Assembly (NCBI RefSeq): GCF_007748075.1
Contig: NZ_CP036280.1
Coordinates: 960,001-992,000, forward strand
Source of the DNA: Mucisphaera calidilacus
GTDB lineage: Bacteria > Planctomycetota > Phycisphaerae > Phycisphaerales > Phycisphaeraceae
Length of the DNA: 32,000 bases
Direction of reading: 5' to 3'
The position numbers and the translations under genes were made by a program. The notes beneath the pieces are model-generated. The model made no database searches. It had not been told where the DNA came from and was given only the letters and a program-made list of their open reading frames with translations. This document shows positions 1 through 15,655 of this stretch, one piece after another; within the stretch, counting starts at the first letter, position 1; each line of letters opens with the position of its first letter.

Positions 1-169
1 CAACGCCCGACTGGCGGATGACCTGCGCGGAGTTGTCGGATGAGTTGTCGTTGACCGCGATGATCTGGTGGGGCGGCAGTGTCTGTGTGGCTGCGCTCTT
101 GAGCGCCTGTTCGACGTAGCGCTCGGCGTTGTGACAGGGCATGATCACACTGAATCGAAACTCGGGCAT
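1..169 (-). CDS. Glycosyltransferase family 2, N-terminal fragment (gene runs off the left edge)
   Basis: Not in the supplied track because it is truncated by the window edge. The reverse complement from ATG (169-167) reads MPEFRFSVIMPCHNAERYVEQALKSAATQTLPPHQIIAVNDNSSDNSAQVIRQSGV. This is the textbook GT2 N-terminal signature (beta-strand-P-x-(Y/H)-N ... Q-T ... I-I-x-V-x-D-x-S-S-D). A GAGGGA Shine-Dalgarno-like motif (176-181, minus) lies 6 nt upstream of the ATG. Confidence 0.8.
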   Translation of the reverse strand, partial: MPEFRFSVIMPCHNAERYVEQALKSAATQTLPPHQIIAVNDNSSDNSAQVIRQSGV

Positions 170-337
170 GAAGGTTCCCTCAAGGATCGGCCGGCATCGC
201 TGCGCTTGTCCCGACGCCCGCGAACCCTACCCCTTCCAACGCCGTGTTGCCAGCGGGGCAGGGCTGTGAGGATGGTGTCAGCACCGCCGGCCGTGCTGGT
301 AAGCTACCAGCCCTCCACACCCCCCCCCGAGAGGCCC

Positions 338-1858: not shown

Positions 1859-1862
1859 ACGC

Positions 1863-2894
1863 ATGCTGCCTCGGGGACTCAAGCTGTGGGCGTTCGAGCG
1901 TGTGGTGCGTTCGCCCGTTCTCTCGCGCTGCTATTACCTGTTCAGCGGCGCGTTCTCGCGCGAGTACGCGGCGGTGCTCTACGGCCGGCTCCAGCACGTC
2001 CGAGAAGCTGAGGCCAAGAGCGACGACGGGGCTCGTTACACCCTCCGCAGGAACACGCACCGGCTTGAGAAGGGGCTGATCATGCGTCCCCGCCGGGAGG
2101 TCTTCGCCACCGGTTATCTCGGCGAGACGGTCAATATCTTTTGCGCCCTCGCGGATCAGGATGACGGCTCCGCGACCGCCAAGGCGCTGCTGGACTGGTC
2201 GGGCGACGTTCTCTACCGCTATTTCGAGGCGGTGCCCGAAAACGCTGACGGCAAGGTTGACCGTCTTCGCGTCAAGTTCACGGAGTCGTTCGAGAAGCAC
2301 GCCCGTCAGCCGGGTCAGTGTGCGCCCTTTGTTCGTGACCAGACGCCGCTGCGGGTCACCATCGACGACATGATCGAACTCGCGCGCCGGCGGCGTAGCG
2401 TCCGGTGGTACCTCCAGCAGCCGGTTCCGCGGGAGATCATCGACAAGGCCATGCTTGTCGGCGGCTACTCGCCGTCTGCCTGTAACCGCCAGCCCTTCGA
2501 GTTTCGCGTGTTCGACCGGCCGGAGCGGGCGGCCGAGATCGGCGCCATCGCGATGGGGACCGCGGGGTTCGCGCAGAACTTCCCGTGTCTCGTTGTCATC
2601 GTCGGCCAGCTGCGGGCATTTCCGTTTGATCGCGACCGCCACGTTCCCTACATCGACGGGTCGCTTGCCGCGATGGCTTTCCAGTTTGCGCTCGAGGTTC
2701 AGGGCGTCAGTTCCTGCTGCATCAACTGGCCCGATATCCCGGAGCGTGAGGCCGCCATGGCCAAGGCGCTTGATCTCGAACCCGACCAGCGCGTCGTGAT
2801 GCTCATGTCGGTCGGCTTTCCTGATCCCGAGGGCAGCGTTCCCTATTCCCAGAAGAAGACCGTTGACGAGCTGCGGAGTTACGACCCGTCATGA
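1863..2894 (+). CDS. Nitroreductase-family domain protein with an approximately 170-aa N-terminal extension
   Basis: Track ORF 1842..2894. The C-terminal half has nitroreductase hallmarks (RRSVRWY..., SPSACNRQPFEFRVF, then CCINW). GTG 1842 overlaps the flippase stop, and ATG 1863 lies 4 nt after it. Either start is possible. Confidence 0.75.
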   Translation: MLPRGLKLWAFERVVRSPVLSRCYYLFSGAFSREYAAVLYGRLQHVREAEAKSDDGARYTLRRNTHRLEKGLIMRPRREVFATGYLGETVNIFCALADQDDGSATAKALLDWSGDVLYRYFEAVPENADGKVDRLRVKFTESFEKHARQPGQCAPFVRDQTPLRVTIDDMIELARRRRSVRWYLQQPVPREIIDKAMLVGGYSPSACNRQPFEFRVFDRPERAAEIGAIAMGTAGFAQNFPCLVVIVGQLRAFPFDRDRHVPYIDGSLAAMAFQFALEVQGVSSCCINWPDIPEREAAMAKALDLEPDQRVVMLMSVGFPDPEGSVPYSQKKTVDELRSYDPS

Positions 2895-4072
2895 TGATTG
2901 AGATCCACGGTGCCGGCTTCACGAACAAGGGTGCGCAGCTGATGATCCGGACGGTCATCAACCGCGTGCGCGAGTCCCTGCCCGATGCGGACTTCTGTAT
3001 CGAGACCGGTTCTGACGCACGATATCCGCGGGTCGCAGAGTACGGCCTGCACATGCTCTACCCGCAGGCGACTTGGGACCGGCCTCGACGCATCCCTTAT
3101 CTGTTGCGGCTGAGTCATCTTCTGGGGCGTGTGATTCCCGCGTCGTTCGTGCGGCCTTTCGGCCTGGTCCGGCGGCAGGACGTGGACGCGCTGATTGACG
3201 TTTCGGGTTACGCCTTCGGCGACAAGTTCGGGGTCTACAAGAGCCGGGTGTTTAATCAGCGGGCGGCCGCCTACGCGCAACGGGGCAAGCCGGTGATTGT
3301 TCTCCCGCAGATGCTTGGGCCCTTTCAGGAGGCCGGCTTTGAGAAGGTCATGGCCGAGATGGTCAGCCGCTCGAGCCTGTTTTATGCGCGCGACCGCATG
3401 TCGCTTGATGACTGTCGGCGGCTGCTGGGCGATCGTGCCGAACCGATCCGACTCGCGCCCGACATCACGATCTACCAGTCGCCCGGGCGACGGGACGTGG
3501 CCATGCCCGACAACCCCGCGCGGACCGTGGCGATCGTCCCGAACATCCGGATGCTTGATAAGGGCGACCCGCGCTGGAAAGAGTCGTACCTCCCGCGGCT
3601 CACCGCTGTCGGCAAATCGCTGCGCGAGCGCGGCTACGACCTGCACGTCGTGATCCACGAGACGCGTGGTGGCGACGCTCGTCTGGGCGAGCAGCTGCGG
3701 GACGCCATCGACCCCTCCGGCGTGCCTGTGATCGCGTACGAGGATCCGCTTGACCTCAAGGCTTATCTCGGGCAGTGTCGGCTCGTGATTGCCTCGCGCT
3801 TCCACGCGGTTGTCGGTTCGCTGGCCATGGGTACGCCGGCCGTTGTGATTGGCTGGGCGCACAAGTACGAGATGCTGCTTGAGGATTTTGGTATCCCGCA
3901 GATGATTCACGGCATCGACGACGGCCCCGACGACCTTCAGGGCAAGGTGGACCAGCTCCTGGACGATGGCCGCCGGGAGGCGATGCACCAGACTCTCGTT
4001 CGGCGTAAGGCCGAGATGAAACCGCTGAACGATGAGATGTGGGAGAGGGTCGTCGCTGCGCTGCGGCGATGA
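2891..4072 (+). CDS. Polysaccharide pyruvyl transferase family protein (WcaK/CsaB-like)
   Basis: Track ORF with an ATGA start/stop overlap with the preceding gene. Starts MMIEIHGAGFTNKGAQLM and has the C-terminal motif IASRFHAVVGSLAMGTPAVVIGWAHKYEMLLEDFG, typical of the PF04230-type pyruvyl transferase family. Confidence 0.8.
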   Translation: MMIEIHGAGFTNKGAQLMIRTVINRVRESLPDADFCIETGSDARYPRVAEYGLHMLYPQATWDRPRRIPYLLRLSHLLGRVIPASFVRPFGLVRRQDVDALIDVSGYAFGDKFGVYKSRVFNQRAAAYAQRGKPVIVLPQMLGPFQEAGFEKVMAEMVSRSSLFYARDRMSLDDCRRLLGDRAEPIRLAPDITIYQSPGRRDVAMPDNPARTVAIVPNIRMLDKGDPRWKESYLPRLTAVGKSLRERGYDLHVVIHETRGGDARLGEQLRDAIDPSGVPVIAYEDPLDLKAYLGQCRLVIASRFHAVVGSLAMGTPAVVIGWAHKYEMLLEDFGIPQMIHGIDDGPDDLQGKVDQLLDDGRREAMHQTLVRRKAEMKPLNDEMWERVVAALRR

Positions 4073-4081
4073 GGTCGGGGT

Positions 4082-5503
4082 TTACTTTCGCTTTTTCCGC
4101 TGCTTGCGCGGTGCCGTTTTTTTTGTCGAGGGGAGCAATTCTGCCGGGACCTGCTCGGGCGGCATCTGCCCCTGCTTGAGGAAGTTCGCGATCCACTGGA
4201 GTCTGGGCATGGCGTGGGGGTAGAAGGTTCGGTACCCGTCGCAGAGGACCGTCGGGCCGGGCAGTTCGCCCCGGGCGGGGCGGTGCTTGGGGCAGCCGCC
4301 GTGGCAGAGCTGGAACCAGTCGCAGGAGGCGCAGGGTTCGCCCAGGTCGAGTTTGCGGTCTGCGAATTCCGTGGCGCGGGCGCGGTCGAGTCCGCTCATC
4401 CATCGTCCGCCGATGGGTGCCGATTCACGCTCCTGTTCCGGAACGCTGCTGTTGATGGTCAGCGGAACCGTGCGGGCGGCTCCGCCGTGCACGTGGCCGA
4501 GCCGCCATTCGGGCTGGACGTAGTGGTCGCAGCCGAACACGGTGCCGTCGTGTTCGATCGTCACCTGCCCCGCGCAGGAGTGGGAGTAGATGCACTCCGA
4601 GGCCCGCCCCATGACGAGGGTGTTGAGCACGCTGTCGAAGAAGCGCACGGAGACCTCGTAGCGGTGTTTCTCGAACCAGAGGTCGAACACTTCGCAGAGG
4701 AACCGGCCGTACTGCTCGGGTGTCGGCGAGAAGCTCGCGGTGTGCCAGCCCTTCCAGTCGCCGAGGTCGGCGGGGGCGGCGTGCCAGTCGCCGTCGTGTC
4801 GGTTCACGCGTTCGGCGTCGTCGGGCGAGAGCCACTCCACGGCGGGGATGAACTGCACCCATCTGGCCTCGATGCGCATCAGTTCGCGCCAGACTTCTTT
4901 GGGGTGCACCACGTTTTTGTTGTTGAGCACCATGAGGATGTTGTGCTCGACGCCGTGCTTGCGGAGCAGTTCGAGTCCGCGCATCACCTGGGCGTAGCTG
5001 CCTGAGCCGTCGGTGGTGACCCGGTAGTGGTTGTGGTCTGAGGCGAGTCCGTCGAGGGAGATGCCGATCAGGAATTCGTGCTGGCGGAGGAAGGCGCACC
5101 ATTCGTCGTCGAGGAGCGTCCCGTTGGTCTGGAGGCAGTGCACGACGCGTTGGTCCGGCCGCCGGTGCTTGTCGACGAGTTCGATCATGCGCTTGAACCA
5201 GTCGAGGCCTGCGAGTGTCGGCTCGCCTCCCTGCCAGGACAGGGTCACGGTCTTGTTGCTCTCGGGCAGGTAGCCGGCGAGTGTTGCCTCGAGTGTCTCC
5301 TCGCGCATGCGCTGGGCGTTGCCGTCGTAGATGCCCATGACCGGGAGGTAGTAGCAGTAGTGGCAGCGGAGGTTGCAGGCGGCCCCCACGGGCTTGATCA
5401 TGAGCATCGATGACTTGGGCGACAGGTCGACCTCACGGCGCTCGGTCAGCGAGCGTCGGAGGGCGTGGGTCTTGAGGATCTGCGCAGCGTCAGCTTGAGA
5501 CAT
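4082..5503 (-). CDS. Radical SAM/SPASM enzyme, anaerobic sulfatase-maturating enzyme-like
   Basis: CNLRCHYCYY (CxxxCxxC radical SAM cluster), WQGGEPTLAG, NGTLLDDEW, GISLDG...HNHYR, VQFIPAVE, and C-terminal Cys clusters (CDHY..., CASCDWFQLCHGGC). This pattern matches AslB/ChuR/anSME-type maturases. It has an unusual basic tail, TKKTAPRKQRKKRK. Confidence 0.75.
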   Translation of the reverse strand: MSQADAAQILKTHALRRSLTERREVDLSPKSSMLMIKPVGAACNLRCHYCYYLPVMGIYDGNAQRMREETLEATLAGYLPESNKTVTLSWQGGEPTLAGLDWFKRMIELVDKHRRPDQRVVHCLQTNGTLLDDEWCAFLRQHEFLIGISLDGLASDHNHYRVTTDGSGSYAQVMRGLELLRKHGVEHNILMVLNNKNVVHPKEVWRELMRIEARWVQFIPAVEWLSPDDAERVNRHDGDWHAAPADLGDWKGWHTASFSPTPEQYGRFLCEVFDLWFEKHRYEVSVRFFDSVLNTLVMGRASECIYSHSCAGQVTIEHDGTVFGCDHYVQPEWRLGHVHGGAARTVPLTINSSVPEQERESAPIGGRWMSGLDRARATEFADRKLDLGEPCASCDWFQLCHGGCPKHRPARGELPGPTVLCDGYRTFYPHAMPRLQWIANFLKQGQMPPEQVPAELLPSTKKTAPRKQRKKRK

Positions 5504-5547: not shown

Positions 5548-5620
5548 TGGAGCCGATGGGGATCGAACCCACAACCTCTGCATTGCGAACGCAGCGCTCT
5601 CCCAATTGAGCTACGGCCCC
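5548..5620 (-). tRNA. tRNA-Ala (anticodon CGC)
   Basis: The reverse complement folds by hand into a 73-nt cloverleaf: GGGGCCG-TA-GCTC-AATTGGGA-GAGC-G-CTGCG-TTCGCAA-TGCAG-AGGTT-GTGGG-TTCGATC-CCCAT-CGGCTCC-A. Anticodon CGC, G3:U70 alanine identity pair, T-loop TTCGATC, discriminator A. CCA is not encoded. Confidence 0.93.
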
Positions 5621-5816: not shown

Positions 5817-8078
5817 ATGGCCAGTCGTAATGATTGTTGGGGGATCGAGATCGGCTCCTACGCCATCAAGGCAATGCATCTTGTTCGCAGCGGGGCCGAC
5901 GTCCGGCTGGTGGACTATGTGCAGCTGCCTTACAAGCAGGTTCTCTCGACGCCTGACATCGACGCCGACGAGCAGATCCGCCTGCAGCTGACGGCCTTTC
6001 TCGCTCAGCACGACGTGTCCAAGTCGACGGTGGTCGCGTCCGTCCCCGGGAACATGGCTTTTGCGCGGTTCGCGAAGCTCCCGCCGGTCGAGCCGAAGCA
6101 GGTTCGGAAGATCGTCGAGTTCGAGGCCAAGCAGCAGATCCCCTTCCCGATCGATCAGGTTGAGTGGGACCATCAGGTGTTTCAGCAGCCCGATTCGCCG
6201 GACATCGAGGTCGGCATTTTCGCGATTACCAAAGAGCGGGTGATGTCGTTCCTGGCCAACTTCCGCGCGGTCAACGTCCGTGTCGACGAGATCACGCTGG
6301 CCCCCGTCGCGGCCTACAACGCCTTTATCTACGACCAGGCCGAGCAGCAGAGCACGGGCACCATCTACCTTGACATCGGCACCAGTTCCACGGACGTGAT
6401 CATCGTCGAGGACGAGAGCATCTGGCTGCGGACCCTGCCGATCGGAGGCAACAACTTCACCGAGGCGCTGGTCCGCTCCTTCAAGCTCTCCTATCCCAAG
6501 GCGGAGAAGCTCAAGCTCGAAGCCAGCACGTCAAAGTACGCCCGCCAGATCTTCCAGGCGATGCGGCCTGTTTTCGCGGATCTTGTTCAGGAGATTCAGC
6601 GTTCGCTGGGCTACTACCAGTCGATCCATCGCGATTCGGAGATCACGCGCATCGTCGGGCTCGGCTCCACGTTCCGTCTTCCCGGTCTGACGAAGTTCCT
6701 CAAGCAGCAGATGCAGATCGAGGTTCAACGCCCCGACACTTACGCGCGTCTGGACATCGACGGCAAGCGTGAGGCGGCTTTCGCCGAGGACGCTCTCAAC
6801 CTCGCGACCGTCTACGGGCTGGCGATTCAGGGTCTTGGCGAGGAGAAGGTTCACGCTAACCTGATGCCCACGCCGATCCTGCGTCAACGCGTCTGGAACG
6901 CCAAGCAGCCCTGGTTTGCAGCGGCGGCGGCCTGCATGGCCGTTGCGGCGGCCATTCCGGTCTACAAGTACTACACCGATCAGACCGCCATCAGCAAGGT
7001 GGAGGACGAGATCGCGCCCAGCGTGCAGGCCGTCACGCGTGAGGCCGACAAGTACAAGAAAGATTTTCAGGCGATTCAGTCGGGCGGCGAGCCGATCCGG
7101 CGTATCGAGGGTCTCCAGTCGCTGGCGCAGATGCGCACCATCTGGCCCTCGATCATGCAGGATGTCAGTCTTGCCGTGAACGCCGCTGACCCCCAGCCGG
7201 AGCTTCGGCAGGGCAGCGATATCGAGAAGATCAAGACGATCCCGCGGACCGAGCGGCGGCAGATCATCATCGAGCAGTTCAGCACCGACTACATCCCCCA
7301 GCCCGAGGATGAGACCGACCAGGAAGAGGACGGCAACAACTTCAACAACTTCGGCAAGGACCCCATGGGCATGGGGATGGGGATGGGTCCGGGGATGGGG
7401 CCGGGTATGGGACCCGGCATGGGGATGGGGCCCGGGGATATGGGCATGGGGATGGGGATGGGGATGGGCGGCATGCCTTCGGGTGGTGACGGCGAGTTCT
7501 CGCGTACTTATCCGCTCGAAGACTTCTTCACCGAGACAACGGGCCCGCGTTTCCACGCCGTCATTGTCGGGACCACCCCCAACGGTCAGGCGGCTGACTT
7601 CCTGACGCGGACGCTCATCAAGTATCTCCGCGATAACGCCGACCGCGAGGGCAGGCCTTACAAGTTCGTCTTCCCGGATACGGTTCTGGTCAACATCGAG
7701 CGTGTCCAGGTGGATCCCGGCCAGCGCGGCTCCGGATCGTCACGCGGCTCTCTCGGTGCGACCAGGAACCCCATGGGTGCGGGCATGCCGCCCGGCATGG
7801 GCATGGGCCCCGGCGACATGGGCATGGGCATGGGCATGGGCCCCGGCGACATGGGCATGGGTATGGGGATGGGGGCACGCTCGCGTTCTTCGACGAATGC
7901 TGAGGATCTGATCCCTCGCCACCCGCTGGCCGACGAGCCGCGTAACACCGACACCCGTTTCCGCATCGAGTTCTTCATCGAGCTCAAGTCGCCCGAGAAG
8001 TCCAAGGCGGCTTCGGGCGAGTTGAGCGCGAGGAGCCCACGCGACGACCACAAACAGCAGACAGGCCGCGATTCATGA
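5817..8078 (+). CDS. PilM-like actin-fold ATPase fused to a PilN-like transmembrane/periplasmic segment (GspL-like architecture) with a Met/Gly/Pro-rich C-terminal region
   Basis: Track ORF 5784..8078; ATG 5817 with a GGAG RBS is preferred. The first 350 aa or so are classic PilM (GIEIGSYAIKAMHL..., YLDIGTSSTDVIIV, LPIGGNNFTEAL, GLGSTFRLPGL). An ANLMP motif follows (6858-6869, like the PilN N-terminal INLLP peptide that binds PilM), then a TM helix (about 6907-6966). After that come a coiled-coil/PilN-like stretch and two GMGMGPG tracts. Confidence 0.85.
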   Translation: MASRNDCWGIEIGSYAIKAMHLVRSGADVRLVDYVQLPYKQVLSTPDIDADEQIRLQLTAFLAQHDVSKSTVVASVPGNMAFARFAKLPPVEPKQVRKIVEFEAKQQIPFPIDQVEWDHQVFQQPDSPDIEVGIFAITKERVMSFLANFRAVNVRVDEITLAPVAAYNAFIYDQAEQQSTGTIYLDIGTSSTDVIIVEDESIWLRTLPIGGNNFTEALVRSFKLSYPKAEKLKLEASTSKYARQIFQAMRPVFADLVQEIQRSLGYYQSIHRDSEITRIVGLGSTFRLPGLTKFLKQQMQIEVQRPDTYARLDIDGKREAAFAEDALNLATVYGLAIQGLGEEKVHANLMPTPILRQRVWNAKQPWFAAAAACMAVAAAIPVYKYYTDQTAISKVEDEIAPSVQAVTREADKYKKDFQAIQSGGEPIRRIEGLQSLAQMRTIWPSIMQDVSLAVNAADPQPELRQGSDIEKIKTIPRTERRQIIIEQFSTDYIPQPEDETDQEEDGNNFNNFGKDPMGMGMGMGPGMGPGMGPGMGMGPGDMGMGMGMGMGGMPSGGDGEFSRTYPLEDFFTETTGPRFHAVIVGTTPNGQAADFLTRTLIKYLRDNADREGRPYKFVFPDTVLVNIERVQVDPGQRGSGSSRGSLGATRNPMGAGMPPGMGMGPGDMGMGMGMGPGDMGMGMGMGARSRSSTNAEDLIPRHPLADEPRNTDTRFRIEFFIELKSPEKSKAASGELSARSPRDDHKQQTGRDS
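7365..7475 (+). repeat. In-frame (ATG-GGN / CCN-GGN) hexanucleotide tract encoding MGMGMGPGMGPGMGPGMGMGPGDMGMGMGMGMGGM
   Basis: Read directly from the sequence. It is an imperfect microsatellite-like run that uses mixed synonymous codons (GGG/GGC/GGT, CCG/CCC). Confidence 0.9.
7773..7875 (+). repeat. Second Met/Gly/Pro tract, containing a 33-nt tandem duplication (7803-7835 / 7836-7868)
   Basis: ATGGGCCCCGGCGACATGGGCATGGGCATGGGC is followed immediately by ATGGGCCCCGGCGACATGGGCATGGGTATGGGG (31/33 identical). This encodes (MGPGDMGMGMG)x2. Confidence 0.9.
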
Positions 8079-9502
8079 ATGCTTTGATCAACTGGATCCG
8101 TAACAACCCTCTCTCGCTGGTCGCCATTCTCGTCAGCGTTGCTTCGCTGGTCGTCATGACCTGGTTCATGATCGGCTCGGGCGGGCTGCGTGATCAGCTC
8201 AGCCAGCAGGCGCAGGCGATCAAGAAACTCCGCAGCTACCGAGCGGTACAGGTTTCGCTGCCGCCCTCCAAGCCCGGCGAGCAGGGCTACGAGGCCTCGG
8301 GTGTCATGGTCAACGCCCAGGCGATCGAGAAGGTGGAGGCGATCAACCAGCAGATGGACAGGCAGTCGCGTCTGGTGGGTGAATTGGCCCTGAATTTCAA
8401 CCGTGGCACCGTGAACAACGCCGACGTCCGTCTGATGTTCGGGAGCGTGGCCGCGGGTCTCGAGCGGCGGCCGATGCGTGAACGTCTCTTCCCGCGGACG
8501 GGCAGTGACAGCGACGCCTACGCCGCGCGCGAGGATTACCTGCGTGCCTTCAGGGACATGCTTGGGCCGTGGTCACCCGACGGGCCCGCCTGGCGGCTCG
8601 ACGCGGGCAACCCGCCCTCGCCCGAGGAGATCGCCGCCCGGATCGGCGAGGTCGAGGCCGATTTGTTTCAGGATTCGGACCGCGGGCAACTCGACGAGGC
8701 CGCCATCCAGCACGAGATGGAGACCAAGCGTATCGCCCTGCTTCAGCTGTTTAAGGAGAAGGCCGAGTCGATCCACGTCTACACGGCCTTCACGCCGGAT
8801 TTGATGATCTCGCCGTTCCAGATCGGCGCCTGGGCGCAGGGCACGATGAAGCCCGACATGCTGACCCTCTGGGAGGCCCAGATGGAGCTCTGGATCCAGC
8901 AGGATCTCGTCGCGGCCATCGCCTGGGCCAATCGTGTTTGGGAAGCCTCGAGCCTCGAGGGCGGCACGGGCACTTCGGTCATCAACGCGCCGGTCAAGCG
9001 GTTGCTGGGCATCACGGTTATCCCCGGGTACGTGGGGACGCATACCGCGGGCGGTATGGGGCAGACGGCCGTGATCAACACCGGCGGCAGCCGGTCGCGT
9101 GGCGGCGGCTTTATGGGGTCTTCGGCGGGTATGGGCGGCCGAGGCGGGCAGGGCGGTGGCGCCTCAGAGCACGGTCCTACCGACCGCAACTTCTTCGTGT
9201 CGCCCACGGGGCGGTTGAGCAACTCGATGTACGACGTGCGTCACGCCGCCATCACGCTTCACGTCGACGCCAAGCAGTTGCCCCGGGTCTTTGAGTCTTT
9301 TTCACGCATCAACTTCATGACCGTGATCGACTGCAGCATGCAGGACGTGGACGAATTCGGACCTGAAGGCTACGCGGGCGGTTTTTACTACGGCGACGCC
9401 GACGTGATCCGTGTTGATCTCGTGATCGAGTGCGTCTTTCTCAGGCAGTGGACGACCACGCTCATGCCCGATGAAGCCAAGGCCTACGTAGGCGTCAACT
9501 GA
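8075..9502 (+). CDS. Bitopic membrane protein of unknown family (N-terminal TM, long periplasmic region with a Gly/Arg/Met-rich tract)
   Basis: ATGA overlap with the pilM-like gene implies translational coupling. The N-terminal TM is LSLVAILVSVASLVVMTWFMIG, followed by the coiled-coil-like QLSQQAQAIKKLRS. A low-complexity tract GGSRSRGGGFMGSSAGMGGRGGQGGGAS lies at about 9083-9165. By position it could be a PilO/GspM analogue, but I cannot see a family signature. Confidence 0.8.
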   Translation: MNALINWIRNNPLSLVAILVSVASLVVMTWFMIGSGGLRDQLSQQAQAIKKLRSYRAVQVSLPPSKPGEQGYEASGVMVNAQAIEKVEAINQQMDRQSRLVGELALNFNRGTVNNADVRLMFGSVAAGLERRPMRERLFPRTGSDSDAYAAREDYLRAFRDMLGPWSPDGPAWRLDAGNPPSPEEIAARIGEVEADLFQDSDRGQLDEAAIQHEMETKRIALLQLFKEKAESIHVYTAFTPDLMISPFQIGAWAQGTMKPDMLTLWEAQMELWIQQDLVAAIAWANRVWEASSLEGGTGTSVINAPVKRLLGITVIPGYVGTHTAGGMGQTAVINTGGSRSRGGGFMGSSAGMGGRGGQGGGASEHGPTDRNFFVSPTGRLSNSMYDVRHAAITLHVDAKQLPRVFESFSRINFMTVIDCSMQDVDEFGPEGYAGGFYYGDADVIRVDLVIECVFLRQWTTTLMPDEAKAYVGVN

Positions 9503-9566
9503 AGCCGAGCAGACGGCACCCCAGCAGCAACGGCGGGCAGAATCATCCCCGCCGAAAGGAAGGCCC

Positions 9567-11567
9567 ATGAAAGGCATCGGAATCCTCGAACTGCACGTCG
9601 AGAAGATCGTCCTCTCCGTGACGATCCTCATCCTCGTTGCTGTCTTCTACACGCAGTTCGTCATGGAACCCAACAGCATTGACGAGGGCACACCCGCCGA
9701 GGTCCAGCGCAAGGTCAACGACGAGGTCGAGGCTCTTGAGCGACGACTCCGCGGCGATTCCAACGTCCCCAACTACAGCGTTTCGGGGTTCGACGACCAT
9801 TTCCTGAACACCACCATCGCCAACCCGCCGGGCAACAACATCCAGATGGCCGGTATCGTCGGACGCACCCCGTTCGAGCCGGAGATCGGCAAGGGCGGCG
9901 GCAAGCAGTACACCCTTCCCCGGCCGCCTGTTGCTACGGGCTTCGAGGTCACGCACGGCCACGCGTTGTTGATGGCTGATGGCGAACTCGGGCGCGAGCT
10001 CGCGCAGATCATCGACCGCCGGGCACCGTACGACTTTCAGTATGTGAGCGTGGCCGCCACGTTCCCCTTTGCTCAGTGGATCAGCCGGCTCGAATCGGGC
10101 CCGGAACGCGACCGCGTGCCCACCCGTTGGTGGGGCGGGCGGCGGCACATCGCCGGCGTGCTGCTCCAGCGGCAGGAACTCGACCCGGAGACCGGGGCGT
10201 GGTCCGAAGTGGTCACCCTCCCGCCACTGCCCGGCCAGATCGGCTATGCCGAGAACGGCCAGCAGAACTGGCAGCCCGGCGAGGTGCAGCAGGCCCTGAC
10301 GCTCGTGACCGGGCAGCCGGACATGGTCCAGAAGTCGCCTTTCGTCCCGACGCAGGGCGGCCTTCCCTGGACGCCTCCGGGTGAGGGCCTCGGCAGCCTC
10401 GCTCAGGACACCCACCGCGAACTGCGGAGCCTCTTTAACAAGCTCGAGAAGGTGCGTGAGATGATCACGCGCACTATGGAACGCGAACGCAACTCGGCCA
10501 ACCGGCAGTCTGCTTCGCGATCGCGATCCGAACGCACCACCACCCGACGCTCCGTCGGCGACGGCGGCATGGGCGGTATGGGGATGAGCCCCGGCATGGG
10601 TGGCAACACACGGCGTGCCGCACCCACCTCACGCAGCTCCACCCGAGACATGTCGCCTCTTGAACGTCTCCAGCAGCAGGAAGCCGAACTCGTCGACGAG
10701 ATCATGGCGATCCTGATGCCCGCTGACCCCGAGGACCAGAACGACAACATGCCCAGCAACAACATGGGCATGGGGATGGGGCCGGGCATGGGCCCTGCCG
10801 GCATGGGGATGGGCATGGGCGGGATGCCCAACACGAGACGTGCCAATCCGGGCCAGGCCGCCTCCAGTGCCGGGATCACCAAGTCGGAGGTCCGCGTCTG
10901 GGCACACGACATCACCGTCGAGCCGGGACGCACCTATCGCTACCGCGTCATCGTGAATGTTCTCAATCCCCTCTTCCGACGCTCGAACATCGAGAAGAGC
11001 CAGCGCGACGAGAACTACCGCAAGATCGCGCTCGGCCCCAGCCAGCAGGAGATCGAAGCCGCGCCGTGGTCCCCGCCGGTGACCACGGATCCCACGAATT
11101 TCTTCTGGCTCGTCGAGGGTCGGCTCCAGCAGCAGGCGGCAGAGATCGAGATCTGGACGCGTTTCAGCGGTCAGTGGGAACGGCTCACCACCGACTTCTA
11201 CGCGGGCGACGCCATCGGCGGGACGTCCACCATCGAGGGCCCTATGGGCATTCAGGCCCTCCGCATGTTCACCGGGCACACGATGGTCGACTATGCCTCC
11301 ATCGGCGGGGGAGCTGCCTCCGCGGCCATGCTGTACGTGGACGACGAGACGGGCGAGCTTGACTACCGCACGGTCGAGGGTGATCAGGAAAACATCAACC
11401 ACATACGCCTGCTCAACGAACTCGATGCCGTCGCGTTCCTGCAGGAGATGGGGGCCGGGGGTATGCGTCGCCAGCGTCCCGGCATGATGAACGACCCGAT
11501 GATGGGCCCCGGTATGGGACCGGGCATGGGCCCGGGCATGGGGATGCCGCCCGGGCAGAAGTTCTGA
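9567..11567 (+). CDS. Bitopic membrane protein of unknown family with three Met/Gly/Pro tracts
   Basis: ATG 9567 is preceded by GAAAGGAAGG. The N-terminal TM is IVLSVTILILVAVFYTQFV. Tracts: GGMGGMGMSPGMGG (about 10569-10602), NNMGMGMGPGMGPAGMGMGMGGMP (10764-10826) and the C-terminal MMNDPMMGPGMGPGMGPGMGMPPGQKF. Confidence 0.8.
   Translation: MKGIGILELHVEKIVLSVTILILVAVFYTQFVMEPNSIDEGTPAEVQRKVNDEVEALERRLRGDSNVPNYSVSGFDDHFLNTTIANPPGNNIQMAGIVGRTPFEPEIGKGGGKQYTLPRPPVATGFEVTHGHALLMADGELGRELAQIIDRRAPYDFQYVSVAATFPFAQWISRLESGPERDRVPTRWWGGRRHIAGVLLQRQELDPETGAWSEVVTLPPLPGQIGYAENGQQNWQPGEVQQALTLVTGQPDMVQKSPFVPTQGGLPWTPPGEGLGSLAQDTHRELRSLFNKLEKVREMITRTMERERNSANRQSASRSRSERTTTRRSVGDGGMGGMGMSPGMGGNTRRAAPTSRSSTRDMSPLERLQQQEAELVDEIMAILMPADPEDQNDNMPSNNMGMGMGPGMGPAGMGMGMGGMPNTRRANPGQAASSAGITKSEVRVWAHDITVEPGRTYRYRVIVNVLNPLFRRSNIEKSQRDENYRKIALGPSQQEIEAAPWSPPVTTDPTNFFWLVEGRLQQQAAEIEIWTRFSGQWERLTTDFYAGDAIGGTSTIEGPMGIQALRMFTGHTMVDYASIGGGAASAAMLYVDDETGELDYRTVEGDQENINHIRLLNELDAVAFLQEMGAGGMRRQRPGMMNDPMMGPGMGPGMGPGMGMPPGQKF
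10764..10826 (+). repeat. In-frame ATGGGN/CCNGGN tract (MGMGMGPGMGPAGMGMGMGGM)
   Basis: Read directly from the sequence. It is the same repeat class as in the pilM-like gene. Confidence 0.9.
11484..11552 (+). repeat. C-terminal in-frame Met/Gly/Pro tract (MMNDPMMGPGMGPGMGPGMGMPP)
   Basis: Read directly from the sequence. The tract ends 15 nt before the stop codon. Confidence 0.9.
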
Positions 11568-11585: not shown

Positions 11586-12227
11586 TCAGCCACGCACACC
11601 CACCACCGCCACGCTGCACCAGCCGTTGCCGATGCGGTTCGTGATGGGCAGACCACGTGTGCTCGGCACGGAAGCGGGCAGCCCCTTCGCCATGCAGCGT
11701 TCGTGCCACACGCCCAGGTCGTGCTCGGCGATCTCGCGTCGTTCCGTGCAGAGGATCAGGCAGAGCCCGGCGTGCCTGATTCGTGAATCGTTCCAGAGCT
11801 TGATCAGATCCTTACGCACCGGGTTGAGTAACTCCGAGCTGTACCCGCGGAAGGGCCCCGTCGTCTCGTGCTGGGCGACATACTTCACCTCCAGCCAGTA
11901 CGCCTCGTCGGCCTCCGCTCCGGGCTGTTGGTCAAAGAGCGTGTTGACGACCTGCTCGTCCTTGAGGGGCAAGCCGTCACGCGTGAGGACGAGGTCGCAC
12001 CGCTCGCCACGGCTGCGTTTGCGCTCGTCCCACCGGCCGGGGTAACGCTGCTCCCGGTGCACGCCAAAGCCCGCGTGTTCCAGGATGGTTGCGAGGATCG
12101 GGTGCAGGCCCAGTTCGTCCTTTGCGTCGAAGCCGTAGACGGCCTGTTCGAGGTCGTCGGCCGCCGCCTGACGCTTCAATCCCTCGAAGAGCACGTCCGC
12201 GAGTTCGGCCGTCGACCAGCTGATCAT
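11586..12227 (-). CDS. Hypothetical protein with a PD-(D/E)xK nuclease-like motif arrangement
   Basis: The order of elements fits a restriction-endonuclease-like core: helix with E (ILATILEHAG), strand FGVHREQRY, strand RCDLVLTR (Asp78), then YWLEVKYV (Glu113-x-Lys115). No other recognisable domain. It lies 12 nt downstream of the CNNM gene on the same strand. Confidence 0.55.
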   Translation of the reverse strand: MISWSTAELADVLFEGLKRQAAADDLEQAVYGFDAKDELGLHPILATILEHAGFGVHREQRYPGRWDERKRSRGERCDLVLTRDGLPLKDEQVVNTLFDQQPGAEADEAYWLEVKYVAQHETTGPFRGYSSELLNPVRKDLIKLWNDSRIRHAGLCLILCTERREIAEHDLGVWHERCMAKGLPASVPSTRGLPITNRIGNGWCSVAVVGVRG

Positions 12228-12239
12228 CGTGGTCAGCTC

Positions 12240-13220
12240 CTACCAGCTCGACAGCTCGCCGGTGATCGGCTCGACCAGGTCCTTGATCGTGACCAGTCCA
12301 GCCGGCTGGCCGTCGTCGTCGACCACCATCGCCATCGGCATCCGGTGCGCCTGCATGGTGCTCAACGCGCGGCGGATCGGCATCGTTCCCTCGAGGATCT
12401 CAACCGGCCCCATCAGCTCCGAGACGCTCGGGCAGGAGGCTCGCTCACAGATCAGCGCATCGCGCAGGTTCAGCACGCCGGCCACGTCACCCGCCTCATC
12501 GACGACCGGGAAGCGTGAGCGTCCCGTGCGGTCCGCGATCGCCCAGAGGTCGTCTGTTGTCGCTTTCAGGCTGACCGTCATGACCTCCTGCCAGGGCGTC
12601 ATCTCGTCCACCACACGCTTGTCACTCAGGCCGAGCACGCGGCCCACGATCGCCGTCTGTTCGTCACTCAGCAGGCCGTGCCCCAACCCTTCCTTGACCA
12701 GCGCCTCGACACGCCATCTGGGGTGTACCGGCCCGCTCGCGCCTCGGCTGACCAGCCGGCCGACGCCCTCGGTGATGGCGACCAGGCCGGCCGCGGTAAA
12801 CACCCAGCGTGATACGCGCAGCACCCCGGCCAGCCGGTACATCAGCCGATCCGCGTAAGCGGCGAAGAGGTCTTTGGGCAGCGTCTCGCCGAACACGAAG
12901 AGCACGGGCGTCACGATCATGGTGTTGACGATCACGTTTGCCCAGCCCGTCACGCCCCGGGACTCGAGCAGGATGCCCAGCATGGCGACGCCCAGGTTGT
13001 TCATGATGTTGTTGCCGATGAGCAGCGTGCTCAGCAGCGTTGTCACGCGCTCGGTTTCGGCACGCAGGAGCCGTGCCGCGGCGAGGCCCTGATGCGCGAG
13101 AACCTGCAGGCGCACGCGGTTGAGGCTGTAGACACCCGTTTCCAGGCCGGAGTAGAGCGCCGAGCCGACAAACCCCACCATCATCCCCGCCACGCACAAG
13201 GCACTCTCGGTGGGTGTCAT
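12240..13220 (-). CDS. CNNM/DUF21 + CBS-pair membrane protein (HlyC/CorC-family transporter, lacks the CorC C-terminal domain)
   Basis: N-terminal DUF21 pattern (SALYSGLETGVYSLNRVRLQVL; LLIGNNIMN; GETLPKD), then two CBS-like modules (RFPVVDEAGDVAGVLNLRD; MAMVVDDDGQPAGLVTIKDLVE). ATGA overlap with the upstream paralogue. Confidence 0.8.
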   Translation of the reverse strand: MTPTESALCVAGMMVGFVGSALYSGLETGVYSLNRVRLQVLAHQGLAAARLLRAETERVTTLLSTLLIGNNIMNNLGVAMLGILLESRGVTGWANVIVNTMIVTPVLFVFGETLPKDLFAAYADRLMYRLAGVLRVSRWVFTAAGLVAITEGVGRLVSRGASGPVHPRWRVEALVKEGLGHGLLSDEQTAIVGRVLGLSDKRVVDEMTPWQEVMTVSLKATTDDLWAIADRTGRSRFPVVDEAGDVAGVLNLRDALICERASCPSVSELMGPVEILEGTMPIRRALSTMQAHRMPMAMVVDDDGQPAGLVTIKDLVEPITGELSSW

Positions 13221-14521
13221 CGCGTTCCCCCCTCGCCACGACGCACCATCGACACCACGACGGTGACGACCCGGTTCCTGGCCATACGCTCGACGCGCAG
13301 CCGCACATTCCCGACCACCAGCTCGTCGCCTTCCTCAGGCAGCCGCCCGAGCTGATCCATGACCAGGCCGCCGAGGGTTGTGGAATCCAGGGCTTCGAGG
13401 GCTTCTGCCCCGAGGTTCAACTCGCGGCCAAAGAGGTCGGGCCAGTCATGCACCGCGAGGTCGCCGTCCACGCGCCACCGGCCCAGCCCGATCATCCTTA
13501 CCTCGGGTCGGCCGCTCGCTTCGAACTCGCCCGCGATATCGCCCACCATGTGCTCGACGATGTCTTCGAGCGTGATCAGTCCCGCGGTACCGCCGTACTC
13601 GTCGACCACGATGGCGAAGGTGGTCCCCGAGCGGCGGAGCTCGACCAGCGCCTTGTCCGCGGTGGTCACCGCGGGCACGTAGTGCACCTGCCGGATCAGC
13701 CGATTCACCGCCTCATGCGTTGTTGGCTGAGCGACCAGCACCTGGCGCGAGTAGAGCAGCCCGACGATCGTGTCCAGGCTGTCATCCTTCACGGGGATGT
13801 GTCGCAGGCCGGTATCCCTGATGAGCGTCATCAACGCCTGCGGGTCTTCACGGACGTCGAACGCCTTGATGTCCACCCGCGGGATCATCAGGTCTTCGAC
13901 CCGGAGTTGTCCGAGTTCGAGCACCTGCAGCAGCAGTCGCTCTTCCTCGGTGTCGAGAATCCCGTGGTCCTCGCTAAGGCGCAGCAACGATTCCAGCTCG
14001 TCCGTGCTCAGGCCCGCCACGCGTGTCCGCGGCGCGATCAGGCGTGCCAGGGGTGTGATCACGCCATGCTGCGCCACCATCCGCACGGGTGTGAGGGCCC
14101 GGTGGACCATGAGCAGCGGGATGGAGGCGTAGCCCGACCACGTCACGCGTGACCTCGACGCCACCAGCTTCGGCAGCACCTCGCCGAGCAGGATGATGAT
14201 GAGCAGGGGCAACAGCGAGAGCACCGACAGGACCCAGGCATCCGCCCACGGCCGCTCGCTGATGCGTATGGTCGCGGCAGAGCTCACGGCGAAAAACAGC
14301 ACGTTCACCGTCATGTTGCCCAGGAGCAGCGTGATCAACAGGCCACGCGTCTCCGAGAGCAAGACCCCGATCGCCGCTGCCGAGGCACCTTTGCGGCGTT
14401 CGAGGACCAGCCTCTGATGGCGGCTGAGGCTGAAGAGTGCCGTCTCGCTGCCCGAGAAGAAACCACTGGCGACAATCAGCACCGGGAGGAACGCGAGCAT
14501 AAGCCACAGCGTCGGGTCCAT
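13217..14521 (-). CDS. Hemolysin-family/CorC-type transporter (DUF21 + CBS pair + CorC_HlyC domain)
   Basis: Track ORF 13217..14623. I prefer ATG 14521 (MDPTLWLMLAFLPVLIV...), which lies 4 nt after the upstream gene's stop. Supporting motifs: SGSETALFSLSRHQ, LLLGNMTVN, GEVLPK, a CBS pair (HIPVKDDSLDTIVGLLYSRQ; FAIVVDEYGGTAGLITLEDIVE) and a C-terminal transporter-associated domain (WRVDGDL...VGNVRLRVERM). Confidence 0.85.
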   Translation of the reverse strand: MDPTLWLMLAFLPVLIVASGFFSGSETALFSLSRHQRLVLERRKGASAAAIGVLLSETRGLLITLLLGNMTVNVLFFAVSSAATIRISERPWADAWVLSVLSLLPLLIIILLGEVLPKLVASRSRVTWSGYASIPLLMVHRALTPVRMVAQHGVITPLARLIAPRTRVAGLSTDELESLLRLSEDHGILDTEEERLLLQVLELGQLRVEDLMIPRVDIKAFDVREDPQALMTLIRDTGLRHIPVKDDSLDTIVGLLYSRQVLVAQPTTHEAVNRLIRQVHYVPAVTTADKALVELRRSGTTFAIVVDEYGGTAGLITLEDIVEHMVGDIAGEFEASGRPEVRMIGLGRWRVDGDLAVHDWPDLFGRELNLGAEALEALDSTTLGGLVMDQLGRLPEEGDELVVGNVRLRVERMARNRVVTVVVSMVRRGEGGTR

Positions 14522-14525
14522 GGCG

Positions 14526-15575
14526 TCAGATCTTGGCTCCGGAGAAGCCTTCCCAGCGATGCGCACGCATCGCCGCGAGGACGCGTTCTGCCGCGTCCAC
14601 GGCCGTGTAGCCGGCCTCGGCATCCACGGTCGGCTGTTGGCCCGTCCGGGCCGCGTCGAGGAAGCTGGTGAGCTCCGCGGTCAGCGGGTCTTCTTCGCCC
14701 GGGGGCAGGTCCATGGTGAGTTCGTCGAGGTTCACGAGCGAGGAGTAGTCCAGTTCGGTCAGATCCACGCCGTCCTGCAGCAGTCGGCGGATTTCGTCCA
14801 GCGCTTCGGCGTTTTCTGCCAGACGGATCACCACGCCCGTTCGCGCCTGATAGTCGAGACTTACGTAGGCGGTCTCGCTGAAGATGCGCATTTTGCGCTC
14901 GGTCTTGAGCGCGAGGCGTGACGCCTTCACGTTCGCCACGCAACCCGACTCAAAGACGAAGCGAGCGCTCGCCACGTCTTCGTACTGGCTGATCACCGAG
15001 ATGCCCGCTGCCTCGACCCGCTGGACCTCCGAGTTCACCAGCATGTGCATGATGTCCAGGTCGTGGATCATCATGTCCATGACGACCCCCACGTCCAGCG
15101 AGCGGAAGGTCATCGGACTGACGCGGTCCACCTCGATGAACCGGGGCGTGATCCCCATCGCCGCCACGGCGCGCACGGCGGGGTTGAACCGCTCGGTGTG
15201 CCCCACCTGGAGCACCGCCTTGTGCTGCTTAGCCACTTCAGCCAGCTCGCGTGCCTCTGCCCGGCTCGGTGCCAGTGGTTTTTCGACCAGACAGGCGATC
15301 TGGCGCTCCAGCAGGGGGCGCGCCGCCGACATATGGAACTGCGTCGGGACCGCTACTGTCGCCGCCTTGAGGGCCGGGTGTTTTTCCAGCAGCTCCTCGG
15401 TGGTGGTGTAAGCGGCACACCCGTACTGGTCGGCGACAACGTAGGCGCGATCCTCGTCCGGATCGACGACCGCCACGAGCCGGGCGCCGTCGAGATTCTT
15501 ATACGTCCTGGCGTGGTGGTTGCCCATACGGCCGACACCAAGCACCGCACAATCAAGAATAGGCTGATCCGTCAT
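14526..15575 (-). CDS. Gfo/Idh/MocA-family NAD(P)-dependent oxidoreductase
   Basis: N-terminal Rossmann motif CAVLGVGRMGNHHARTY...ARLVAVVDPD, followed by EKPLA and the typical C-terminal alpha/beta domain. Confidence 0.85.
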   Translation of the reverse strand: MTDQPILDCAVLGVGRMGNHHARTYKNLDGARLVAVVDPDEDRAYVVADQYGCAAYTTTEELLEKHPALKAATVAVPTQFHMSAARPLLERQIACLVEKPLAPSRAEARELAEVAKQHKAVLQVGHTERFNPAVRAVAAMGITPRFIEVDRVSPMTFRSLDVGVVMDMMIHDLDIMHMLVNSEVQRVEAAGISVISQYEDVASARFVFESGCVANVKASRLALKTERKMRIFSETAYVSLDYQARTGVVIRLAENAEALDEIRRLLQDGVDLTELDYSSLVNLDELTMDLPPGEEDPLTAELTSFLDAARTGQQPTVDAEAGYTAVDAAERVLAAMRAHRWEGFSGAKI

Positions 15576-15655
15576 CCCAATATCCTAGCCGATTGCGGCA
15601 GGCCTATCGCGTGATTCAGGGTGATCCGCCGCGCCGTCCCGCATACGATGTGCCC

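Follow-up and report, generated by a model that had tools for sequence, protein, structure and literature searches.

The stretch of DNA analysed here, called the window below, comprises 32,000 nucleotides of the genome of Mucisphaera calidilacus, a marine planctomycete of the class Phycisphaerae (NCBI RefSeq assembly GCF_007748075.1, contig NZ_CP036280.1, positions 960,001 to 992,000). It carries three co-directional open reading frames (ORFs) on the plus strand, g1, g2 and g3, and these genes, together called the trio, and the envelope machine to which they may belong are the subject of this report (Table 1). An ATGA overlap, read directly in the sequence, joins g1 to g2, and g3 follows after a spacer of 64 nt, with a GGAAGG box 5 nt 5' of its ATG. 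The initial annotation, made from the sequence alone, had described this coupling and the ribosome-binding site of g3. It had also described a PilM domain joined in g1 to a PilN-type docking peptide and a transmembrane (TM) helix in a GspL-like architecture, two large bitopic proteins without family signature (g2 and g3), five Met/Gly tracts confined to g1 and g3 with a Gly-rich tract in g2, and a window that holds no pilus or secretion gene, the trio being flanked by a tRNA and convergent genes. As a description this was accurate, since the ORFs, the domains and the absence of partners were all confirmed, by the sequence itself, the match to PF11104, the alignment with PDB entry 5eou, the lack of a Pfam or NCBIfam match for g2 and g3, and scans for tracts, domains and motifs.

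Table 1. Features of the trio locus, in window coordinates
Feature	Position	Strand	Description and basis
g1	5817..8078	+	753 aa counted from ATG; natural PilM-PilN-type fusion; relatives annotated 'type IV pilus assembly protein PilM'
PilM actin-fold domain, cytoplasmic (g1 residues 1-340)	5817..6836	+	End-to-end alignment with PilM_2 (9-338) and PDB PilM chains
ANLMP peptide (g1 residues 347-351)	6855..6869	+	Counterpart of the PilN N-terminal INLLP, which docks into PilM
g1 single TM helix (residues 366-383)	6912..6965	+	Only hydrophobic window of g1
g1 periplasmic part (residues 386-753, about 370 aa)	6972..8075	+	Coiled-coil, then alpha-beta / beta-alpha-beta / beta with two disordered linkers; consensus of 45 orthologues
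g1 (MG)n/(MGPG)n tract 1	7362..7496	+	ATGGGG array, 16.8 copies; linker position conserved, composition lineage-variable
g1 (MG)n tract 2	7770..7877	+	Contains a recent 33-nt duplication (period 33, 2.4 copies, 95% matches)
g2	8075..9502	+	475 aa, bitopic; expanded PilO/Amuc_1100-like fold (model)
g2 PilO-like alpha-beta-beta-alpha-beta-beta core (residues 262-456)	8858..9442	+	Model secondary structure, pLDDT, 76-column PilO match
g2 Gly-rich loop (residues 337-362)	9083-9160	+	In first hairpin of the core; disordered, pLDDT <50
g3	9567..11567	+	666 aa, bitopic; PilP/Amuc_1099 operon position; no solved structure matched by fold
g3 N-terminal alpha/beta domain and long helix (residues 110-325)	9894..10541	+	Model; invariant P118, R202, W212, W268
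g3 insert (MG tract, helix, MG tract)	10557..10832	+	Disordered in model; whole segment absent from compact 475-aa homologue
g3 M/G/P tracts	10557-10607; 10764-10832	+	Tract scan; disordered in model
g3 C-terminal beta-rich domain (residues 438-632)	10878..11462	+	Almost invariant opening signature VWAHDxTVxPGxTYRYRxxVxVxNPLF
g3 C-terminal (MGPG)n tail	11496..11558	+	Tract scan, tandem array

The cytoplasmic part of g1 is a complete PilM domain. It matched PF11104 (PilM_2) with an E-value of 3.9e-34 over 338 of the 340 model positions, scored 158.7 bits against TIGR01175 (pilM), above the cutoff of 133, and aligned with PilM in the PDB (2ych, 5.6e-23; also 3jc8 and 5eou). The top-scoring family for g1 was NCBIfam NF045709, 'Amuc_1101 family PilM-like pilus complex protein' (3.9e-69). 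This match spans model positions 1-461 of 608 and covers the PilM domain, the TM helix and about 70 periplasmic residues, up to residue 454 of g1. The GspL model TIGR01709 gave 19.3 bits (cutoff 65) and PF05134 an E-value of 0.022. Fusions of the g1 type are numerous, their large family counting 1081 clusters at E<=1e-30, and the best 150 of these are mostly 650-850 aa long, the named ones all being from Phycisphaerae and annotated as PilM. The orthologues begin with the same start Met as g1 of the window, and over residues 1-492 the identity was 52-62% in most of the Phycisphaerales orthologues compared and 36-37% in Sedimentisphaerales.

The junction behind the PilM domain could be compared with a solved structure. 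PDB entry 5eou is an engineered chimera of Pseudomonas aeruginosa PilM and residues 1-12 of PilN, and residues 5-351 of g1 align across the whole of this chimera including its junction, where VHANLMP of g1 pairs with ARINLLP and the linker length is equal. The motif N-[LIVM]-[LIVM]-P was found in 41 of 45 g1 orthologues. In this respect g1 is a natural version of the laboratory fusion, which makes it plausible that its NLMP peptide docks into the PilM domain of the same chain. In the periplasmic part, the consensus of the 45 orthologues has a conserved order of helix, strand, linker 1, strand, helix, strand, linker 2 and strand. The hydrophobic pattern agrees with alpha-beta-beta-alpha-beta-beta, as expected of a PilN/PilO ferredoxin-like core, and this half of g1 would probably have a PilN-like fold.

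The g2 protein has one N-terminal TM helix, and its AlphaFold2 model, built from 49 homologues, had a pLDDT of 85.6 and a pTM of 0.78. When the model was compared with the PDB by Foldseek, all of the 14 top matches were either PilO or Amuc_1100 of Akkermansia. The match to P. aeruginosa PilO (2rjz) had probability 1.0 and extended over 76 columns with a root-mean-square deviation of 2.6 A, and PilO was also matched in 5uvr and in chain O of 3jc8 from Myxococcus xanthus. For the Amuc_1100 structures 6lad, 6kny and 6laf, the probability was 0.96-0.99 in the six best of ten chains and 0.77-0.89 in the others, with a target TM-score of about 0.5. No Pfam or NCBIfam family was found for g2, either singly or among 49 family members, and profile searches against the PDB did not give a family either. 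Faint echoes were seen with hidden Markov models (HMMs) in the g2 family, of GspM in 2 of 49 members (best E 0.041) and of Amuc_1100 in 2 of 49 (best E 0.088), and these are suggestive only; an hhalign comparison of the family with GspM gave an E-value of 0.011, confined to the TM region. The 52 homologues of g2 come mostly from metagenome-assembled genomes (MAGs) of Phycisphaerae.

In the third protein, g3, a single TM helix again lies at the N-terminus, and a lipobox is absent. Its AlphaFold2 model had a pLDDT of 78.7, with folded domains above 90, and is ordered as TM helix, alpha/beta domain with a long helix, Met/Gly linker, helix, Met/Gly linker, beta-rich domain and Met/Gly tail. The compact g3 of locus L178, 475 aa, joins the two domains directly, without the insert of helices and linkers. 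We found 42 homologues of g3, mostly in Phycisphaerae MAGs, and no Pfam or NCBIfam family, singly or across 40 and 51 family members, and profile searches against the PDB were likewise empty. The traits of PilP, a lipoprotein whose beta-sandwich binds the N0 domain of the secretin, were not found in g3, nor was a match to an HR or PDZ domain. The initial annotation had proposed HMM and structure searches that might bring g2 and g3 back to PilO and PilP, and this turned out to be half the case: g2 is PilO-like by its fold only, and g3 matches nothing.

It was also possible to observe conserved cytoplasmic N-termini in front of the TM helices of both proteins. In g2 (window 8075-8120) the motif W-I-K-x-N-P is present in 27 of 49 members, and in g3 (window 9567-9610) the corresponding segment reads F-F-E-x-H-V-E-K, with H-x-E-K in 37 of 51 members and E12 and K13 nearly invariant. 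By analogy with INLLP of PilN, these motifs might serve to dock a partner in the cytoplasm. A protein search returned an identical M. calidilacus entry for g2 and not for g3, for which the best match was 61% identical; the g3 start may have been annotated differently, or g3 may be absent from the protein collection searched.

The trio was followed through the class in two ways. One genome per species in GTDB was scanned with the g2 motif, which gave 59 loci in which g1, g2 and g3 were checked by tblastn, and metagenomes were scanned with a hand-built degenerate DNA pattern of the g3 signature, which gave 120 loci. In the genome loci the order g1-g2-g3 on a single strand is found wherever the contig allows, and the metagenomic loci have the same order, with g1 E-values of 1e-73 to 1e-95 in much more divergent versions. 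This amounts to about 180 genomic and metagenomic loci across Phycisphaerae, Sedimentisphaerales included, and the neighbourhoods annotated with Pfam in Phycisphaerales and Sedimentisphaerales show these three genes as well. The genes around the trio rearrange independently of it. Thus, the order of the trio is kept while the block downstream moves separately, and the trio can be regarded as a conserved unit across the class. Two different trios (L006 and L046) were observed on contigs of one MAG (JBBDRF01, LejiaC_63_19), so that either the bin is mixed or a second, paralogous copy is present.

In a minority of the loci the trio lies near the gene for a secretin, the pore in the outer membrane. 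In L109 and L178 the gene immediately after g3 encodes a TPR protein of 1097 or 1111 aa with a C-terminal secretin domain (PF00263; 3.7e-22 and 4.6e-26), and the genes next to these secretins were identified as g2 and g3 by profile HMM (8.3e-22, 5.6e-54 and 5.8e-44). The same type of secretin is found directly 3' of g3 in L059, L126 and L168 as well, which makes five divergent relatives in all, and in L043, L050 and L053 a secretin lies about 3.6 kb upstream of the trio on the same strand. Queries with E. coli GspD, GspE, GspF, GspG, GspO and Hof proteins near the trio returned one T2SSE ATPase (L036), prepilin-type DUF1559 genes (L029) and no secretin. This is explained by their low sensitivity, as the divergent secretins emerged when those of L109 and L178 were used as queries. 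A complete pilus or secretion operon was not found around the trio in any locus. The initial annotation had considered that related trios might be embedded in such operons, and of this the linkage to a secretin is borne out, in a minority of loci, whereas the complete operon is not.

Locus L053 is from a complete genome (CP050848.1, strain ZRK34), and its region 759-5426, with the secretin gene and the small genes after it, encodes a 1097-aa TPR-secretin with a long low-complexity segment rich in Pro, Lys, Ala and Glu. Between the secretin and the trio are STAS-like and anti-sigma-kinase-like genes, named from their translations only, and a convergent argS-like gene. The three small genes after the secretin resemble, again judged from translations, a partner-switching set of STAS, anti-sigma kinase and STAS, and they may be a hint that the machine is regulated. 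In L115 (1771-7480) a 23S-5S rRNA operon comes after the trio, and then a gene for an RRM-domain protein and one for a T2SSE ATPase with an FHA domain, which adjoins the CNNM genes. Such an FHA-fused type II/IV ATPase is unusual, and it was rejected as an operon member, the rRNA operon lying between it and the trio. L160 resembles L115, with matches to g3, a gspE-like gene and CNNM (by tblastn only) and a comparable gap without long ORFs.

All five Met/Gly tracts are on the predicted periplasmic side, and they are the only long tandem arrays in the window, made of imperfect ATGGGN hexanucleotides in up to 16.8 copies. Elsewhere in the coding-strand frames of the window there are none, and the other M/G/P matches are antisense shadows of these five; the minus-strand ORFs at 6531-7556, 7658-8053 and 10403-10933, which read PMPMP or HPHPH, are shadows of the repeat arrays and not genes. 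Tract 2 of g1 (window 7794-7873) contains 2.4 copies, 95% identical, of a 33-nt unit, GGCATGGGCATGGGCCCCGGCGACATGGGCATG, which implies a recent in-frame duplication and an ongoing expansion of the tract. The linkers are disordered in the models of g2 and g3, and in the alignments of orthologues their positions are kept and their length and composition vary. (MG)n linkers were found in the Mucisphaera clade, in L001, in L014, L021 and L022 and in the Sedimentisphaeraceae genome L063, and an (MMPG)n linker in L058. Gly-Tyr repeats (DPYGG) take their place in L005, L023 and L032, GYPG in L046, GEFGEF in L053, and stretches rich in Arg, Ser, Thr and Pro in other orthologues.

The Met/Gly tracts represent disordered linkers, at positions that are conserved, which have expanded in particular lineages. 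Among the 38 genomes with complete g1 and g3, six have tracts in both genes, 27 in neither and five in one only (Fisher p = 7e-4), and the Met contents of g1 and g3 are correlated (Spearman rho 0.60), both figures ignoring phylogeny. A genome-wide effect of composition was excluded, since the flanking genes of eight tract-bearing genomes contain no such tract. The absence of the tracts from most orthologues, together with the compact g3 of L178 and the hexanucleotide arrays, implies that the core machine can do without them and that their evolution is one of slippage. The initial annotation had named absence from orthologues as a mark of lineage noise, and for 27 of the 38 genomes this absence is what was found, but they turn up again in distant lineages, where they are confined to the trio proteins, and g1 and g3 carry them jointly. 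The recurrence, the restriction to the trio and the joint occurrence suggest that some selection may act on the chemistry of the linkers.

Our preferred interpretation, to which we give a probability of about 0.62, is that the three proteins form, in the inner membrane, the alignment (assembly-platform) subcomplex of an envelope-spanning machine which is type-IV-filament-like, contains a secretin and is of the type known from the Planctomycetes-Verrucomicrobia-Chlamydiae (PVC) superphylum. The locus is most likely split rather than orphan, and a variant of a known system rather than a new kind. The initial annotation had taken the genes for an orphan module re-used outside pilus and secretion machines, and this could not be upheld in view of the PilO/Amuc_1100 fold of g2, the kinship of g1 with Amuc_1101 and the linkage to secretin in eight loci. 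In this scheme g1 would supply the cytoplasmic PilM module, its own NLMP peptide tethering PilM to the membrane-spanning half in the PilN position. The g2 protein would be the PilO-like partner that pairs with the periplasmic half of g1 by coiled coils and ferredoxin-like cores, and g3, in the position of PilP, GspC and Amuc_1099, would be anchored in the inner membrane and reach across the periplasm to a TPR-secretin of about 1100 aa. The Met/Gly and Gly-rich tracts are disordered loops or linkers that were expanded by slippage at fixed positions, and most likely, as the economical reading, they provide flexible spacing or tethering. In Mucisphaera, as in most Phycisphaeraceae, other parts of the genome would hold the genes for the secretin, the ATPase, the platform protein and the (pseudo)pilins, and for M. 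calidilacus we assume this of the secretin and the ATPase; Phycisphaeraceae genomes do encode T2SSE ATPases and prepilin-type (N_methyl) proteins. We infer contacts among the trio proteins, including one between g3 and the secretin, and the machine could serve fimbriae, secretion or uptake. M. calidilacus is reported to have a polar matrix or fimbriae (PMC8882080). A search of the literature on PilM in the division of Planctomycetota, or on pili in Phycisphaerae, gave nothing relevant.

Several results weigh against such an alignment subcomplex. The window holds no gene for a pilin, ATPase, platform protein or secretin: T2SSE ATPase, GspF/PilC, secretin and peptidase domains were all absent from its ORFs of at least 180 aa, and a prepilin N-methylation motif was not found in any frame. 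Linkage to a secretin is the exception, since it is lacking in 76 of the 80 loci whose sequence extends 3.5 kb or more past g3. The score of g1 against NF045709, 234 bits, is far under the equivalog cutoff of 650, and judged by this score g1 is a relative of the Amuc_1101 family and not a member of it. Residues 386-753 of g1 gave no Pfam match, PF05137 included, and no PDB match by sequence, nor did the profile of 45 sequences, and the PilO/Amuc_1100 fold of g2 is a predicted one with a modest E-value, 1.2e-3 against 2rjz. For g3, Foldseek found nothing in the PDB at E<=0.001, with PilP and GspC not among the 50 best matches listed, and the Amuc_1099 model matched 1 of 40 members (E 0.22) in one alignment and 0 of 51 in the other. 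The likeness of g3 to PilP and Amuc_1099 is therefore positional only, before the secretin in some relatives. Comparisons by hhalign of the three trio families with E. coli GspC, GspL, GspM, HofN, HofO, HofP, GspD and HofQ were negative, those of g3 with GspC and HofP included, and no profile similarity that would indicate paralogy was seen among the periplasmic parts of the three proteins.

The kinship with the MUL2 cluster of Akkermansia (Amuc_1099-1102) makes polymer uptake a live alternative, though a rather improbable one. The machine would be the same, working as the Phycisphaerae counterpart of MUL2 and importing polysaccharides or glycoproteins to the periplasm rather than building a pilus for motility or secreting proteins. 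The top family of g1, the Amuc_1100 match of g2 and the gene order, which is that of Amuc_1101, 1100, 1099 and 1098 with the secretin last (PMC5332112), are all in keeping with this, and in Akkermansia the MUL genes for pili and periplasmic complexes are required for the accumulation of mucin (PMC12418764, PMC13174399, PMC13524802). Phycisphaerae are rich in carbohydrate-degrading enzymes (PMC11131199), and the internalisation of whole polysaccharides has been proposed for Planctomycetes (PMC8882080, citing Boedeker 2017). However, uptake has been demonstrated only in Planctomycetia with crateriform structures, which M. calidilacus does not have (PMC8882080). No gene for a carbohydrate-active enzyme or transporter is linked to the trio in the loci examined, no Amuc_1102-like pilin gene lies upstream of it, g3 has no detectable relation to Amuc_1099, and the direction of transport is not readable from sequence. 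An extended form of this idea is that the trio and the TPR-secretin are the Phycisphaerae form of a PVC-wide nanomachine for polymer import, homologous to MUL2, in which the lineage-specific Gly-[Met/Tyr/Phe] loops of g1-g3 would be cohesive 'sticker-spacer' segments that surround the conduit with a selective mesh in the periplasm, loosely like FG-nucleoporins. The recurrence of the tracts, the covariation in composition between g1 and g3 and the replacement by Gly-Tyr and Gly-Phe rather than arbitrary sequence are compatible with it, but a cohesive mesh is speculative and we consider it unlikely.

PilM and FtsA share a fold, and g1 matches PF14450 (FtsA) at 9.3e-11, so the trio could in principle be a scaffold independent of pili, either an envelope organiser or an FtsA-like anchor for the binary fission of Phycisphaerae, which takes place without FtsZ (PMC8882080). 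The presence of the trio throughout the class, mostly unlinked to pilus genes, and the good conservation of the cytoplasmic domain of g1 would suit such a function. PF14450 is listed for every close g1 homologue, though, and the match is not specific for FtsA, as it covers a region of the fold that PilM-family proteins match too; against the ftsA model TIGR01174 g1 scores 41.8 bits (cutoff 175.85), with the PilM models far higher. Genes for division or the cell wall were not seen next to the trio in any of the loci with annotated neighbours. A secretin-coupled machine is indicated by the docking peptide of PilN type, by the PilO fold of g2 and by the secretin in eight loci, which makes a division scaffold very unlikely. 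Even less probable, and close to negligible, is that the Met-rich tracts are the functional centre of a device for handling metals or stress, with the PilMN part as its chassis and with thioether binding of Cu(I)/Ag(I), an antioxidant function of methionine or the binding of hydrophobic peptides as the activity. This idea can draw on the five tracts on the predicted periplasmic side, their recurrence in distant lineages in trio proteins only and their co-occurrence in g1 and g3. Against it, the tracts are lacking in most genomes, where Gly-Tyr, Gly-Phe, Pro-Gly or Arg/Ser/Thr-rich linkers occupy the same positions, and the compact g3 has no linkers at all. The His and Asp partners typical of the CopA/PcoA/CusF motifs are missing, no copper-resistance gene is nearby, and the arrays are slippage-prone hexanucleotides, one of them recently duplicated. 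The suggestions of the initial annotation about division, Cu(I) and a function like the SRP M-domain thus gained no supporting finding.

The surroundings of the trio in the window are of mixed content. Upstream is a gene for tRNA-Ala(CGC) on the minus strand (5548-5620), and downstream a gene for a protein of 213 aa, convergent with g3, ends 18 nt past the g3 stop. The remaining genes of the window encode polysaccharide synthesis, a radical-SAM protein, two CNNM/CorC transporters, a GFO/IDH/MocA oxidoreductase, PdxA and other housekeeping functions. A scan of the trio locus for promoters and terminators gave nothing usable. Farther upstream, at 68-4072, lie a polysaccharide flippase-type gene (Polysacc_synt_3), a nitroreductase-family gene and one for a polysaccharide pyruvyl transferase, and toward the far end of the window a PEP-CTERM protein is encoded at 28428-29372. 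These genes are consistent with the slime matrix that has been described for M. calidilacus (PMC8882080). In many Phycisphaeraceae the trio shares synteny with the block at 11586-16711, which contains the 213-aa protein of no family, the two CNNM/CBS/CorC transporters, the GFO/IDH/MocA oxidoreductase and PdxA; in L002, L035 and L052 this block has been moved or inverted with the trio intact.

With the alignment subcomplex as the preferred interpretation, two uncharacterised families of about 50 sequence clusters each, and the PilM-fusion family of 1081 clusters, would be assigned to a concrete machine, a secretin-coupled scaffold of the inner membrane and periplasm, in a class with almost no cell-biological data. 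The trio proteins are the likely missing assembly-platform proteins, equivalent to GspL/M/C or PilN/O/P, for the scattered secretin, ATPase and pseudopilin genes of planctomycetes. The products of Amuc_1098-1102 matter in mucin foraging and host signalling, and the ties of the trio to this cluster, by sequence for g1, by fold for g2 and by gene order, suggest an older apparatus, common to the PVC superphylum, of which the Akkermansia cluster is a single branch. The g3 protein would then be a new protein in the position of PilP, GspC and Amuc_1099, bridging the periplasm to the TPR-secretin.

Compared with the PilM-PilN-PilO-PilP-PilQ system of type IVa pili, as in P. aeruginosa, M. xanthus and Thermus thermophilus, g1 has the actin-fold PilM domain, by sequence and by its match to PDB chains, and the PilN-type N-[LIVM]-[LIVM]-P peptide followed by a TM helix. 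The next gene encodes a predicted PilO-like fold, a third periplasmic protein comes after it, and in some relatives a secretin then completes the gene order of pilMNOPQ. The differences are that PilM and PilN are on one polypeptide, that g2 (475 aa) and g3 (666 aa) exceed PilO and PilP two- to fourfold in length, and that g3 is anchored by a TM helix whereas PilP is a lipoprotein, with no PilP-like fold matched. Furthermore, the secretin of the trio relatives is about 1100 aa long and has TPR repeats, the trio is mostly unlinked to other pilus genes, and long disordered low-complexity loops are inserted in all three proteins. The 5eou chimera has PilM fused to the PilN peptide by the same short linker, INLLP as compared to NLMP in g1, but it stops after 12 PilN residues, where g1 continues to a TM helix and a periplasmic region of 370 aa. 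As for FtsA, g1 scores below the ftsA equivalog cutoff, and no division gene is found among the annotated neighbours of the trio.

In the type II secretion system, GspM is PilO-like and GspC contacts the secretin. GspL has a PilM-like cytoplasmic domain, one TM helix and a PilN-like periplasmic domain, which is the architecture proposed for g1, and GspC is a bitopic inner-membrane protein like g3. However, g1 fits the PilM models far better than that of GspL (19 bits with TIGR01709, cutoff 65), the similarity of g2 to GspM is marginal, g3 has no HR or PDZ match and gives nothing with GspC models, and there is no gsp operon context.

The Amuc_1098-1102 cluster (MUL2) of Akkermansia muciniphila differs from the trio in that the equivalog cutoff of the Amuc_1101 family lies far above the 234 bits of g1, and in that neither g2 nor g3 is matched significantly, at the level of sequence, by the Amuc_1100 and Amuc_1099 families. 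An Amuc_1102-like pilin gene does not accompany the trio, the secretin is mostly unlinked, and the trio proteins are much larger, with low-complexity linkers. In other respects the two are alike. Amuc_1101, PilM-like with a TM helix and a periplasmic extension, belongs to the family that scores highest with g1, and the modelled fold of g2 matches the crystal structures of Amuc_1100. The genes in Akkermansia are ordered Amuc_1101, 1100, 1099 and 1098 (PMC5332112, PMC13174399), and the relatives with a linked secretin have the same order of PilM-like protein, PilO-like protein, third protein and secretin. Both organisms are members of the PVC superphylum.

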